From NCBI RefSeq assembly GCF_045037415.1, contig NZ_CP173440.1: a stretch of 64,000 bases of DNA; one strand, 5' to 3'. This DNA comes from Escherichia coli. GTDB taxonomy: Bacteria; Pseudomonadota; Gammaproteobacteria; Enterobacterales; Enterobacteriaceae. Position numbers: made by a program. This document shows, one piece after another, positions 58,801 to 64,000 of this stretch (position 1 is the first letter of the stretch; each line of letters begins with the position of its first letter).

Positions 58801-61800
58801 ATTTTTGAAGTTCCGCATTATGTATAAATTACTTTCCGAGAGTCAGTGATGAAAAAATTGTTTATATCCCTGCTGTCGGTACTGTCTGCTTCAGTAGCCA
58901 GTGCTGCCGATTTTCCTGTTACTATTGAAAGTTGTGGGACTCCTGTAACATTCTCCGGCCCGCCGAAAAGGGCTGTGATCAACGACCTTAATATGGCAGA
59001 GATGGCGTTTGCACTGGATTTGCAGGATCGTATTGTTGGGCTGACCGGTATTAGTGGCTGGTACAAAATGACGCCGGAATTTAAAAAGGCGATGGGCTCG
59101 ATCCCTGAACTGGCACCCAAATATCCCACCCTGGAAACATTGCTGGCAGCCGAGCCTGATTTCTTTTTCGCTGGCTGGAACTATGGAATGAAAGTAGGCG
59201 GCGAAGTGACGCCGGATACGTTAAGCAAATATGGCATCAAGACTTTCGTTCTGAGTGAAAGCTGTGTGTTCACCACTGCGCACAAAAATAAAGCCACGAT
59301 GGATCTGCTGTATAACGATATCCTCACGCTGGGTAAGATTTTTGGCAAGCGCAATGACGCACTGTCCCTAGTCAGCGGCTGGCAAAAGAGGCTGAGTGAA
59401 CTGCCGAAGCCAGCGGCAGGTACCCGTCCTTTAAAGGTGTTCGTCTACGACTCAGGTGAGGATAAACCGTTTACCAGTGGTAAATATGCGATGCCTACGG
59501 CCATGATTGAGGCGGCTGGTGGTAAAAATGCAATGGAGGCGCTGGATACCAGTTGGGGAACGACGTCTTGGGAAAGCGTGGCCGCTACTGAGCCGGACTT
59601 CATTATTTTGTTAGATTACCAGACGGGCAGCGGTGCGGATACACTGCGTCATTTTCTTGAGAATCATCCGTTAATGAAACTGACTCCGGCTGTTCAGCAT
59701 CATCGATACCTGAAATTACAATATGCTGAACTGACGCCGGGACCAGCTAATGTTGGTGCGGTGGAAAAACTCGCGTGGGCAATGTACCCGACAGAAGCGA
59801 AGTGATGCTCATGTCGTACCGTTATCACTGGGTGATGTGGGGATCGATGGTCGTGCTGATTGGGTTAATGTTATTCAGCATAACCAGAGGGACAGTCTCA
59901 CTGTCGCTAATGCAGGTGCTGGGTGCACTGAAGATTGTGGATGAGCCGGTATCTGCCATGGTCAGCAGAATTGTGACGGATTTACGCGTACCGAGGATGT
60001 TGCTCTCTGTGCTGACAGGGGCGGGACTGGCAATGGTAGGGGCATTGTTACAAACTACCACCCGTAACGATCTGGCTGATCCTTTTTTATTCGGGTTATC
60101 CTCCGGTGCGTCAGCAGGAGCGGTGCTGGTGATCACCCGTTTTGGTGATCGACTAGGAGTATTAACGCTCCCCGTATCGGCGTTTGTTGGTGGTGTGTGT
60201 TCCGCCATAGCAGTAATGCTGTTATTTCATTTTAAAAAGCAACGCGGAGCTGAGCATCTAATTCTCTGCGGTCTTGCCATCTCTTTTTTGTTCGGGGCGC
60301 TGACTAGTTATTTTATTTTTTCGGGCGATCAGCGAGCCGCCAGCTCAGTGCTTTTCTGGTCACTGGGTGGCCTGGGATTAGCCACCTGGAATAATTTGCC
60401 TTTTGCAGTGTTCAGCCTGGTATTGCTGTTTGCCTTTGTCCTGTTGCGGTGGCGCTCTCTGGATGGTGTGCTGGCAGGAGAACAAACAGCGTTGTCGCTG
60501 GGGATTAACGTGAGTCGTCTGCGCATCGAGATTTTTCTTTGTTGTGCACTGGCAACATCGTTGATGGTGGCATTAACCGGCGTGATTGGATTTGTTGGCT
60601 TAATGGTGCCTCATCTGTGTCGGCATTTTGCAGGAGTTAAGCATCTGTTGTTGTTACCTCTGTGTGGCGTCTGGGGTGCAATATTACTGTGTGTCGGCGA
60701 TATAGTCAGCCGGACGATACTGGCACCACAGGAACTACCAATTGGCATTATTACGGCGGGCATTGGAGGGTTGTTTATTATCATGTTACTCGCGCGAAAC
60801 TCGCCCTAGAGAATATGGGCGATTACTCGCCGGGCCTCCTGTAATTTTCAAGCGATGTTATGAAACGATGGTAATCTAACTGATGGTTTGAGCGTGCCAT
60901 GTAAGTAAAGAAGAACTGGCAAACCTTAATGTTGCATTATATCATAACAAATGATAAGTGAGGCCCAATGTTTCTCTTACTGGTCGTGCTCCCAAGCATG
61001 CCTTTGGCGAAAAGGTTAGACCTCAGGCTGCGTTCAGCAACTACATGATATCTGTCTGGATTGTGACGGAGATGCGGTACTACTGCTTGTGGTTCAAAAA
61101 GGTGAAGCCTGCCACACAAGTCGGCGGAGTTGTTTTTACAACGCTACCGCCGGCCTTTTCATCCGACCCGTTTCTGGCAGGTGATGGAAAATGAGCTGGA
61201 TGAAGTCGTCAGATCAAAAGGTTACTTCTGGCTGGCCAGCCGTCCGGAATTCGCAGGTTCATGGTCACAGGCTGGTGGCATTGCGCGCCAGGCGCTGGGG
61301 GGCATGTGGTGGGCGAGTGTGCCGAAAGAACGTTGGCTAGAGGATGCTGAGTCACTGAAGTTCATCATGTCTAACTGGATAGATGGCATTGGTGATGCCC
61401 GTCAGGAACTCGTTTTTATTGGAATGGATATGAATGAATCAAAACTGCGCAACAGACTGGATTCCGCCCTGTTAACGGATGCAGAAATGGCTGAAGGGCC
61501 TCAAAATTGGCGGCATTATCCCGATCCTGTTGAGCCTTGGTTCGAAGAATGAATCGAAGGCACCCGTATTTGTCGGGTGCCTTCGTATGAGGGCGAAAAA
61601 GGGGCCATTTTTTAGCCCTTCTTCAGAATCACTCATATTAGAAAAAATACCTTTGTGATTATAAATCCTCATTAGTTTTGATGTGAAACTATTATGCATT
61701 ACCCCATCGCCAAGTATGGTTGCCCCGTAAAGTATTCCGTCCTTAGTTAAAGCAGCTTTCACGTTTTTTATGACAACACCTTTATCCACCATCGCCCCAG

Positions 61801-64000
61801 GAAGACAATGTAAGAGATAATACATTGATATAGAATCGAATTTACCATGTAGTTCCTCTGGATAAGATTCAAATACATTATGCTGAACTTCATACCGTAT
61901 TCTGGCTTTCCCTATCCTTGCTGATGCCGTTTTCAAACTAGCCTTATTGAGATCCATAAGTGAGATATTGTAATTTGCAGGAGCTTTGGCAAGATAATAC
62001 CCAGTTCCAACGCCAATATCTAAATGGTTAGGTCTTAAATTTTGTAAAAAATAAGGGAGCAAAATCTCTTTTGTCGGACAATGCCAAGCGTAACTGTTGG
62101 AAATGCTCAGCACCCACCAGTCATAAAGCTTCAAAGTGAATGGTGTGTAGATCTTCGTTCCTTCATCAACATTACTCATTAGTTATACCTTGCAACAGTC
62201 AATGTGGATAAGCAGAGCATATAGCAATATGCTCAATATCTCCTTTCTATTTTATCACGATTTTTTCCACTACTTACCAAGATTTACAACAAACAACATA
62301 TTATTGCAATGCATTGCCATTTTGTTCACATACTTGGCAATTTATAAGTATATTGCATAAATATAAAGTTGACTTTTAGAGTTCTTTTTTGTAGATAAAC
62401 TCTCATGGAAATATGGAAATATGGAAATATGGAAATATGGAAATATGGAAATATGGAAATATGGAAATATGGAAATATGGAAATATGGAAATATGGAAAT
62501 ATGGAAATATGGAAATATGGAAATATGGAAATATGGAAATGAGGTAAGAAACAGAAGACTATAAAATTTGAAGTCAAAAATGGTAACTGAGCTCCTCCTC
62601 GTTTGGGTGCTTAGGAGATATAACTAGTGGAGAATGAAATATAACTATTACTGCAAAATAACCTGTTAAGCCAGCCGGGCCACTTTCGTGGGCCAGGGAT
62701 CGTGGAAAATCCCCCCCTGCTGCCACCAGAGAATTTCCTCTTCAGTGAGTAAACACTGGCGCAATGCGAGGGCAAAATCGTCAATTTCGCCGCTCTCGCC
62801 AATAACAGTCAGGCGGCAGCGCCGGTCACCAAATCTGCCCGGCATTTTTGCCAGTTGCTGACGGATAGCTGCGCGTTCTTCCTTTGTCAATGAATTATCA
62901 GTGTGAGTCAGGACCCCGGCTTTCCAGTAGCTTATGAATTCGAGATTGATGCTCCCTGCTGCCTGGTTCCACAATAATGCCAGGTCATCCCTTCCCGGTA
63001 GCCAGAAAAAACCCTTGCTGCGGTAAACGCCTGCGCCCATGAAGCGATGGCAGGTATCCCACAGCCGCTGCGGATGAAATGGGCGGTCATCCTCAATGAC
63101 CCGCCACGAAATATCATATTTTTTGTCGGGTTCATCCGACAAAACTGCATCAATTGCATCCTGAAGCTCATCGATAAGTAACGCCACCCGATGAAAATCG
63201 TAATCCGGCATGGAAAGCAATTCATCCAGCTGTAAATTTCCCCAGGGCACGGCCATAATTGCAACCTGCGGATTAAGGGGATGTATGGCTCTGGCTACCT
63301 CAGTAACAACATAGAAGGGTAATCTGTCGTTTTTGGTTAACAAGAGCTTATTACAGAACATAATCTGTTCTGCCAGCAGGCTTTCCACTCCCCGGGTCCC
63401 TCTGTTGAGGTGCTCCTGGAAAACCGGAATAAGTTTCTTTCCACCGTCGTAGTCATCATTAAGCATGACCGTATCTACAAGCGACAAAAATGCTTTAAGA
63501 CTTACCTGGGGGTGTTCTCGCAGATAGCGGACCAGGGGAAGAGGATGGCTGCTGCCTGACGTTTCCAGTAAAATAAAATCCGGAGACCGTTTTTCGAGCA
63601 GGTTTTTCAGCGCGGAATCCAGCTTCTGGATCCCACTTCTGCTGCTGATACTGTCTGCTGAAATACTCACAAAATTGTTACTGGCTGCATCAACGATTTC
63701 TGTGTTGGCTATCAGGACGCCATCCACATCAAGTTCACTCATGTCATTAACGATGACGGATACAGCCATTCGCCGTTTGTGTGCCTGTGTAAGAAGGTTT
63801 TTTAGCAGAGTAGTTTTTCCTGCTCCCAGAAAACCATTAAGGATAATGAGCGGTGTTCTTTTCATAGCATCCAGCCTTATGCCGCTAAACGTTAATGCAA
63901 TCAAGTTGCAATAATACCGGCTTCCTGCCAGAATTCAAATGACATGACTCGGAGGGGGAAATATGGCAACACCAGTAGCCAAAACGTATGACTGGAAGCA

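Follow-up and report, generated by a model that had tools for sequence, protein, structure and literature searches.

A decayed second zinc island leaves direct and inverted repeats that recombine around the rmpA region of pLVPK-type virulence plasmids

A decayed second zinc island on the plasmid analysed here leaves a direct repeat of 1.4–1.7 kb and an inverted repeat of 0.46 kb, and repeated recombination between the copies deletes or flips the rmpA region. The window, a 64,000-nucleotide stretch of Escherichia coli DNA (NZ_CP173440.1), holds a Klebsiella pneumoniae virulence region of the pLVPK type and belongs to an IncFIB/IncHI1B hybrid plasmid. We consider it likely that this plasmid carries two zinc-starvation islands of one family, that the second (module 2) is a rearranged and diverged remnant, and that the pieces shared by the two islands are substrates for homologous recombination. 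The mechanism is of the ordinary homologous-recombination type, and it lies behind a clinically important plasmid variant.

Module 1 (15.8–33 kb) is a complete island of zinc-independent enzyme paralogs. Paralogs of folE2, dksA, hisI, cysS, pyrC and others are clustered according to the RefSeq annotation of identical DNA, with dksA and hisI scoring above their NCBIfam cutoffs. The ZigA-type gene (30714–31937) carries the CxCC motif and reaches 702 bits with the ZigA model (NF038288), whose cutoff is 600. A pattern search for TGTTATAWNRTAACA at up to two mismatches returned 17 putative Zur boxes where 1.4 were expected. These include matches at 24332, 27622, 32395, 36538, 57545 and 60930, two of them in module 2. 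By its sequence, module 1 corresponds to the zinc-sparing island already known to be under Zur control, and it is related to the KpZM module of ICEKp. Intact islands, found on an E. coli chromosome beside ybt and on plasmid pBio30, have the order feoB-like, zigA, hisI, fur(b), permease, binding protein, ATPase. The genes of module 1 are collinear with these islands; deletions aside, the left part of module 2 likewise follows the order of the island end.

Module 2 covers 57.5–64 kb and about 0.25 kb past the window end, and is bounded on the left by an IS5-family (IS903-like) transposase gene (56332–57300, minus strand). It opens on the plus strand (57545–58000) with a perfect sequence match to the Zur box (57545–57559), followed by scrambled pieces of two COG0523 genes (57.56–58.0 kb). 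One of these fragments has GCICC and no P-loop; the other is an N-terminal piece resembling the repeated gene treated below. An intact FecCD/BtuCDF-type ABC transporter comes next on the plus strand (58000–60809; ATPase 58000–58827, binding protein 58846–59805, permease 59805–60809), and shares 95.6% identity with the one that closes the KpZM-type island. It is followed by what is left of the divergent promoter region of fur(b) and hisI (60807–60964, plus strand) with a Zur-box-like site at 60930–60949. The junction at 60807–60818 is a 672-bp deletion of a Fur-family gene that is present in the intact islands.

The hisI remnant, hisI' (60965–61144, plus strand), consists of the start region, a 182-bp internal deletion and then 171 bp of hisI. 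The reference is the intact paralog at 31974–32381 on the minus strand, which has a Zur box by sequence match at 32395–32414. Fine mapping equates 60965–60983 with the first 19 bases around the hisI start (32378–32360), and self-BLAST of the window aligns 32017–32187 with 61144–60974 at 91.8% identity. The end points of the 182-bp deletion are marked by a 10-bp repeat, CTGTTACTGG, present twice in the intact gene. A second deletion removes 32016–31120 (897 bp) and joins hisI' to zigA', with two unmatched bases at 61145–61146. Both deletions map as given in the preliminary description, where the direct repeat had been read as 7 bp.

All that module 2 retains of the ZigA-type COG0523 gene is its last third, here called zigA', with 53 bp of downstream terminator region (61147–61605, plus strand). 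It pairs with the 3' third of intact zigA and its terminator region (30661–31119, minus strand). Self-BLAST of 30661–31119 against 61605–61147 gives 459 bp at 96.5% identity with 16 mismatches, so the inverted copy that had been read at about 95% is real, with its end moved from 61606 to 61605.

On the minus strand, a paralog of a class I SAM-dependent methyltransferase gene, MT' (61472–62179), reads into the terminator region of zigA'. A full-length paralog lies beside the truncated rmpA (52386–53039, plus strand), and homology between the two (52385–52957 vs 62180–61608, 80.8%, self-BLAST) ends 82 bp before the paralog's stop codon. MT' is therefore 3'-truncated, its last 82 bp replaced by read-through into zigA', as had been noted for a junction near 61606. 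A perfect tandem array, (ATGGAAAT)x17, occupies 62405–62540 between MT' and the second copy of the direct repeat, and its copy number differs among plasmids. The preliminary description had called for the intact ancestor of module 2 among related replicons; the search recovered the island order given above, and no ancestor of the part running from MT' through the array to the repeat. Zinc-island proteins were found near none of 28 loci with relatives of the methyltransferase (one genome per species), which indicates that the adjacency of MT' and zigA' is a secondary junction.

Taken together, at least six small deletions, with short microhomology or none at the joints, would have eroded module 2. 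The earlier picture of a zinc module being dismantled holds, and comparison with the intact island adds the 672-bp loss, a 95-bp loss described below and the scrambled COG0523 pieces to its scars. The dismantling is incomplete, as the ABC transporter genes are intact and preceded by a putative Zur box, and the repeated COG0523 gene is likewise intact, with mostly synonymous differences.

This gene makes up most of the direct repeat. The first copy, R1 (24357–25706), and the second, R2 (62651–64000), both on the minus strand, align by self-BLAST in the same orientation at 97.56% identity with 33 mismatches and no gaps (E=0), which bears out the direct copy of about 98% seen by eye. They are spaced 38.3 kb apart and measure 1350 bp in the window, or about 1.7 kb with the sequence past its end. 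R1 comprises a COG0523-family GTPase gene (24372–25571) together with the intergenic region and the opening 38 bases of a fur-family gene that starts at 25669; true homology extends to 26057. R2, cut by the window end, comprises an intact COG0523-family gene (62666–63865, 399 aa) and a fur-family start at 63963. It runs about 255 bp further with a 95-bp deletion inside the fur-family gene, which is thus a pseudogene. The two COG0523 genes differ by 24 synonymous and six non-synonymous codons. Of the repeat's contents as first listed, the COG0523 gene and the fur-family start stand. The motif given as SxDS is SISS (where ZigA has CICC), and the supposed operator fails, as the COG0523/fur intergenic region (25572–25668) has no Zur-box-like match at up to two mismatches. 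R1/R2 and the 459-bp inverted repeat are both long pairs of closely matching sequence within a single replicon.

The origin of module 2 can be addressed by comparing alleles. R2 is 97.6% identical to R1 of the window and 97.1% to the pLVPK-type R1, the two R1 types being 96.1% identical to each other, and R2 is a mosaic of both R1 types with private sites. Similarly, zigA' is 96.5% identical to the KpZM-type allele and only 85.8% to the ancestral pLVPK-type zigA; its high identity in the window arises only because the KpZM allele later took the place of about 9 kb of module 1. Furthermore, R2, the right part of module 2, is inverted relative to the intact island, that is, its orientation relative to zigA' and the ABC genes is the opposite. 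These sequence comparisons suggest that module 2 arrived as a separate island and that R2 is a third allele and not a copy of resident genes.

The preliminary description had instead favoured a segmental duplication, in which parts of module 1 were copied inside the same replicon and the copies then diverged and decayed. Such a scenario would account for the same genes occurring twice on one plasmid with some segments 96–98% identical, and gene conversion among the resident copies could explain why blocks of R2 match one R1 type or the other exactly. We nevertheless consider it rather unlikely. The identity of the pieces is uneven (81% to 97.6%), the figure for zigA' against the ancestral resident gene is low, and the COG0523 differences are mostly synonymous, as between functional alleles. 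Moreover, the ABC transporter of module 2 is missing from module 1 of the plasmid, yet present at the island end elsewhere. An old duplication within the replicon, followed by divergence and gene conversion, may be the origin of module 2; arrival as a separate island is the reading we prefer.

Whatever their origin, the repeats lead to specific predictions. Recombination between R1 and R2 would remove everything between them, the rmpA region and half the zinc island included, and recombination between the arms of the 459-bp inverted repeat would flip the 30 kb between them. For the deletion, a chimera of the R1 left flank, the repeat and the R2 right flank was searched in PLSDB. It was matched end to end by 58 records (57 with a shorter query), in nearly all of which this was the sole such place. 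The junction reads dksA2, hybrid repeat, lysozyme-inhibitor gene, and pVir-CR-HvKP4 (MF437313) is among its carriers.

When SNPs were phased against the pLVPK-type R1 and R2, the hybrid repeats began with R1 alleles at the left and changed once to R2 alleles. The crossover lies at 24612–24660 in the pBA813_1 class, at 25140–25188 in the p44-1 class (with a one-SNP R1 patch), at 25297–25341 in pKP114-Vir and at 25472–25524 in the pVir-CR-HvKP4 class. With crossovers at four or more distinct places in the repeat, the deletion has arisen independently at least four times. The product of the inverted repeat is present in two plasmid records, where the hybrid reads aaaaaaaaabbbbbbb with the switch within 30824–30928. 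Deletion and inversion products alike thus have their junction inside the repeat with a single switch of parental allele. The direct repeats had been proposed as substrates for both deletion and amplification; deletion is confirmed by these plasmids, whereas the reciprocal junction MT'-R-fur-cysS predicted for a duplication or amplification occurs in 0 of 72,556 plasmids, a collection in which excised circles would not be represented. The enzyme system behind the deletions is probably RecA-type recombination.

The same distribution would be read in the opposite direction if single-repeat plasmids were ancestral and the 38–59 kb segment had integrated by homology from a circular element with one repeat copy. 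Integration through a shared repeat yields an identical two-repeat structure, and the interval does hold mobile-element remnants and accessory virulence genes. We regard this as very improbable, as R1 and R2 are discrete types, with two allele types, in four two-repeat plasmids (the window, TP6-1, TP6-2 and CP072809), and the single-repeat plasmids show four different switch points and carry the 95-bp-deleted fur-family pseudogene. In addition, at the left end of the interval the fur-family gene and the rest of the island follow without a break, exactly as they do where a chromosome holds a single copy of the island.

Scarcely credible, in our view, is a site-specific or insertion-sequence mechanism in place of general homologous recombination. 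Remnants of IS5, IS1 and IS630 do occur inside the interval and near it, the homology of R2 ends on its right exactly at an IS remnant in pTK421_2, and other deletions on these plasmids have been ascribed to IS elements (PMC11465609). Against this, the four junction positions lie inside the repeat with clean allele switches and no IS sequence or target duplication, and the crossover intervals are spread over about 900 bp of the repeat rather than sharing a fixed core site. Furthermore, self-BLAST of the window detected no IS pair flanking the interval, and the repeat boundaries, located either a little beyond gene ends or at deletion junctions, have no IS ends.

Some records show other arrangements. 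Ten records from one Illumina-only, reference-guided study have odd junctions that do not fit a simple crossover, including an R1–R2 tandem in head-to-tail order and an allele change no more than 15 bp away from the 95-bp deletion. The tandem, in pK230_rmpA2, was considered as an ancestral duplication or an illegitimate deletion and set aside as a probable artefact, because both junction ends fall at BLAST homology boundaries and the assemblies are short-read and reference-guided.

In some plasmids the two modules stand in inverted relative orientation, so that R1 and R2 would be unable to cause the deletion there. Inversion of one module against the other through the 459-bp repeat was ruled out, both R copies being outside its arms. 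The same IS5-family transposase gene adjoins both modules in those plasmids, and their inversion is therefore probably IS-mediated.

An assembly artefact, with repeats collapsed or mis-joined, had been named beforehand as what would refute the description, and it can be dismissed: apart from the implausible homology-boundary junctions of the ten records above, hundreds of complete assemblies made independently share the two-repeat structure, the 33 differences between the copies make them hard to collapse, and the 178-kb deletion plasmid was assembled from nanopore and Illumina reads, with its missing rmpA and iro reported independently (PMC6087712). The 6.7-kb structure of module 2 and R2 was found at 80% coverage or more in 548 PLSDB plasmids and also in 19 E. 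coli genomes (laboratory transconjugants being the majority among the matches listed), and such recurrence shows that the repeats of the window are no artefact.

Plasmids of the pLVPK type without rmpA and iro are the prevalent virulence plasmids in the studies of ST11 carbapenem-resistant hypervirulent K. pneumoniae from China considered here. The repeat pair, with its four or more independent crossovers, offers a simple mechanistic reason for this recurring loss. The exact deletion junctions can be used for PCR or read-based surveillance, and NDM hybrid plasmids of the window type are predicted to share the instability of the rmpA region. Any selective reason for the deletions we can only infer. 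It seems quite unlikely that R1/R2 form a recurrent, selectable "shedding switch" by which MDR clones would drop the costly rmpA/iro/peg-344 together with both plasmid Fur-family regulators, leaving the retained half-island (hemB-dksA2, COG0523) under the host Zur only, and that this rewiring would aid epidemic success.

The deletion variant itself has already been reported in the literature we found, in which these repeats are not given as its cause. Searches of that literature, largely outside subscription journals, turned up no stated mechanism for the rmpA/iro deletion. The 178-kb pVir-CR-HvKP4 (pCR-HvKP4-VIR), a pLVPK deletion derivative from ST11 carbapenem-resistant hypervirulent K. pneumoniae, lacks a 58.8-kb element holding rmpA, iroBCDN and fecIRA-like genes (PMC6087712). 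It carries the exact predicted R1 x R2 junction, in the order hemB...folE2-dksA2, hybrid COG0523 gene, 95-bp-deleted fur-family pseudogene, lysozyme-inhibitor gene, def, iuc. The window differs in being undeleted, in its interval of 38.3 kb instead of 58.8 kb and in its KpZM-type R1 allele.

In the sections of Haas et al. (2009; PMC2770081) considered here, Zur-regulated COG0523 clusters of zinc-independent paralogs are described and the pLVPK cluster is marked as Zur-regulated. Common to those clusters and the window are the ZigA-type COG0523 gene, folE2, a Cys-less dksA, the hisI, cysS, pyrC and carbonic anhydrase paralogs and putative Zur boxes; a second decayed module and the repeats are unmentioned in those sections.

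KpZM is a module of about 34 kb for Zn2+/Mn2+ metabolism upstream of ICEKp (Lam et al. 2018, PMC6202445). The E. coli chromosomal island, with two bounding P4-like integrase genes and then ybt, was matched to KpZM by description and context. This island is 100% identical to 22900–32000 of the window and 95.6% to the ABC genes of module 2, and it preserves the gene order of which module 2 is a derivative. Unlike KpZM, the plasmid modules are without integrases, aztABCD and the sit-like transporter, and module 2 is fragmentary and partly inverted. The decayed second island is also a record of exchange among zinc islands carried by plasmids and by ICEKp (KpZM).

Direct repeats such as rrn operons or IS copies classically give deletions and inverted ones inversions, with crossovers spread along the repeat and occasional conversion patches. 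The repeats of the window differ from these in being diverged gene remnants with 2.4–3.5% mismatch, rather than identical mobile elements or rRNA operons.

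A BLASTN comparison of the window with itself recovered all the similarities that the preliminary description had listed. The two copies of the direct repeat, R1 (24357-25706) and R2 (62651-64000), lie in the same orientation and are 97.56% identical, with 33 mismatches and no gaps. The inverted pair 30661-31119/61605-61147 is 96.5% identical, the hisI pair 32017-32187/61144-60974 91.8% and the methyltransferase pair 52385-52957/62180-61608 80.8%. The sole further internal repeat is a perfect tandem array of an 8-bp unit, (ATGGAAAT)x17, at 62405-62540, upstream of the truncated methyltransferase paralog (MT'). 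As it counts 12 copies in an otherwise identical plasmid, NZ_CP072809.1, and about 8 to 18 across plasmids, as implied by record lengths, it is a variable-number repeat. In a plasmid running past the window end, R1/R2 homology reaches the equivalent of 26057, and R2 has a 95-bp deletion of the equivalent of 25724-25818, turning its fur-family gene into a pseudogene. Copy 1 of the full direct repeat thus measures about 1.7 kb and copy 2 about 1.6 kb.

Except for 2,481 bp that it lacks, the window is collinear with the IncFIB/IncHI1B hybrid phvKpST395_NDM1_1657 (NZ_CP072809.1), and many of its proteins coincide with the reference proteins in the annotation of pLVPK-like virulence plasmids. The missing stretch adjoins IS1 (50522-51219) and comprises peg-344, rmpD and the final 61 bp of rmpA; the rmpA ORF in the window (51253-51843) encodes a protein of 196 aa whose C-terminus is foreign. 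A stretch identical or near-identical to 57.3-64 kb is found in hundreds of large Klebsiella pneumoniae plasmids and in E. coli strains with the virulence plasmid, mostly laboratory transconjugants. To the right of the window follow the remainder of the repeat, a c-type lysozyme inhibitor gene, def and iucABCD-iutA.

It had been proposed that the direct repeats are substrates for deletion or amplification of the interval between them. Natural products bear out deletion, whereas the junction expected of duplication or amplification was absent from all 72,556 plasmids. The expected R1 x R2 deletion product, consisting of the folE2-dksA flank, one repeat and the lysozyme-inhibitor flank, was matched end to end in 58 PLSDB plasmids (57 with a shorter query), and in nearly all of these the matched repeat is the only copy in the record. 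Among them are pVir-CR-HvKP4 (MF437313) and pCR-HvKP4-VIR (NZ_CP040540), where the annotated gene order is exactly as predicted. When phased at the sites separating pLVPK-type R1 (from E. coli TP6-2 p1) from R2, each recombinant changes once, from left to right, from R1 alleles to R2 alleles. In window-equivalent positions the switch lies at 24612-24660 in the class of pBA813_1 (about 9 records from India, Turkey and elsewhere), at 25140-25188 with one R1-type site at 25224 in that of p44-1 (about 17 records), at 25297-25341 in pKP114-Vir (1 record) and at 25472-25524 in the class of pVir-CR-HvKP4 (about 20 records). Since a single remaining copy has no donor for later conversion, the four switch points represent at least four independent deletion events. 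Mechanistically, this is a textbook case of homologous recombination, here between diverged repeats.

Ten records from one study depart from this pattern. Three have a full R1 head to tail with a full R2, overlapping by TG, and in the other seven the switch lies at most 15 bp from the 95-bp deletion. In that study the assemblies rested on Illumina reads alone, and gaps were filled with the best-hit plasmid as reference; these records are probably artefacts. Such odd junctions occur in MK347234.1 (locus L007, 6828-6907) and MK347227.1 (locus L040), and the left breakpoint, CACACATG, is also that of the 95-bp deletion. The reverse direction of change, with single-repeat plasmids ancestral and the interval inserted, is unlikely, because R1 and R2 are discrete allele types in the two-repeat plasmids analysed whereas single-repeat plasmids vary in switch point, because the left end of the interval carries on the fur-family gene exactly as single-copy islands do, and because single-repeat plasmids have the deleted fur-family pseudogene.

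The left copy belongs to a complete zinc-starvation island (module 1, about 15.8-33 kb). Its genes are, in order, hemB, a dihydroorotase paralog, an M14 peptidase, a truncated thrS, DUF1460, a hypothetical gene, carbonic anhydrase, folE2, dksA, a COG0523-family GTPase, a Fur-family regulator, cysS, an oxidoreductase, a FeoB-like protein, zigA, hisI and a second Fur-family regulator. NCBIfam confirmed ZigA (702 bits, cutoff 600), HisI and DksA. The repeated GTPase (24372-25571 and 62666-63865) was assigned to the CobW/COG0523 family, scoring 199 bits against the ZigA cutoff of 600, and has SISS at the position of ZigA's CICC metal-binding motif; it is a cysteine-free COG0523 member within the island. 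The Zur-box consensus has 17 matches in the window against 1.4 expected, and all but one of these predicted sites precede operons of module 1, module 2 or the 36.5-kb ABC operon. Outside the annotated zinc island, a five-gene ABC/MFS operon (36578-42819) is preceded by a Zur-box-like site at 36538-36552. Haas et al. (2009, PMC2770081) already marked pLVPK as carrying a Zur-regulated cluster.

The same island is present in about 33 E. coli chromosomes, between two integrase genes and directly upstream of ybt. It fits the zinc/manganese module of ICEKp (KpZM), matching the published description of this ~34-kb module (PMC6202445). In a sliding comparison, 22900-32000 (folE2 to zigA) agreed at 100% with the KpZM-type island of E. 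coli/ICEKp, and its flanks (15800-22900 and beyond 32100) were 100% pLVPK-type: about 9 kb of module 1 has been replaced in this plasmid lineage by recombination with a KpZM-type donor. The strong inverted repeat noted earlier is a by-product of this replacement.

Module 2 (57.5-64 kb and beyond) reads, from left to right, as the reverse complement of the end of the intact island. In the chromosomal island and pBio30 a feoB-like gene is followed by zigA and hisI, both on the opposite strand, then by a Fur-family gene transcribed divergently, and then by the genes for permease, binding protein and ATPase. Module 2 begins with a predicted perfect Zur box, from 57545, followed up to 58000 by scrambled pieces of two different COG0523 genes, one with GCICC but without the P-loop, the other with an N-terminus resembling the repeated gene. 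Then come intact ATPase, binding protein and permease genes (95.6% identity to the KpZM type), the scar of a 672-bp deletion in which the Fur-family gene was lost (12-bp overlap at 60807-60818), a diverged promoter region holding a Zur-box-like site, hisI with two deletions, the last third of zigA (zigA'), MT', the 8-bp array and R2. Fine alignment agrees with the earlier reading of the hisI remnant: 19 bases around the start codon are retained, a 182-bp deletion lies between two CTGTTACTGG copies of the intact gene, and after 171 bp of hisI an 897-bp deletion fuses it to zigA'. MT' is likewise truncated at the zigA' junction, homology ending 82 bp ahead of the paralog's stop codon and the reading frame entering the zigA' terminator region. 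The orientation of R2 relative to zigA' is opposite to that in the intact island, so the remnant has been rearranged as well as deleted. The picture of a second zinc module being dismantled is supported and extended, by the scrambled COG0523 pieces and the further 672-bp and 95-bp deletions. The search for its intact ancestor recovered the order from ABC genes to zigA, but no zinc genes were found near methyltransferase relatives in 28 other species, so the position of MT' is secondary.

Labelling module 2 a segmental duplication was probably wrong. R2 is 97.6% identical to R1 of the window and 97.1% to pLVPK-type R1, the two being 96.1% identical to each other, so that it forms an equidistant third type. 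Over 24359-24753 it equals one R1 type and over 24809-25104 the other, and in 25108-25708 it agrees with neither. The two COG0523 copies differ by 24 synonymous and 6 non-synonymous codons, as would be expected of functional alleles, and zigA' is nearer the KpZM-type allele that the window now carries (96.5%) than the pLVPK-type zigA (85.8%). The mosaic, the codon differences and the latter value disfavour a duplicate of resident genes, and we infer that module 2 is what is left of an island of this family that was acquired separately. Furthermore, in pTK421_2 (locus L044, NZ_CP045692.1, 2887-3304) the fur-family gene of the single repeat is full-length, an IS remnant comes next, and the lysozyme-inhibitor flank begins exactly at the base ending R2 homology in pLVPK-type plasmids, which suggests that an IS made this boundary.

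The inversion predicted from the 459-bp inverted repeat was found in two Egyptian plasmids, whose hybrid repeat switches cleanly within 30824-30928, supporting recombination at this pair as well; in one of them the rmpA-bearing stretch from IS1 to IS5 is missing as well. Modules 1 and 2 are inverted relative to each other in TP6 plasmid p1 (loci L001/L008), NZ_CP169295.1 and NZ_CP050380.1. As the same IS5-family transposase gene (WP_004225014.1) adjoins both modules in the TP6 plasmids, an IS-mediated inversion is suggested. In such plasmids the R1/R2 pair would yield inversion instead of deletion.

The searchable literature, with most subscription journals outside its scope, did not name the COG0523-fur repeats as the cause of deletion, and cobW is only a marker gene in the list of Turton et al. 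This substrate pair and its repeated use appear to be previously unremarked. Their importance lies in the clinical weight of this plasmid family, and they are relevant to Klebsiella genomic epidemiology. Compared with pLVPK, pVir-CR-HvKP4 was described as lacking a 58.8-kb element with rmpA, iroBCDN and fecIRA-like genes (Dong et al. 2018, PMC6087712).
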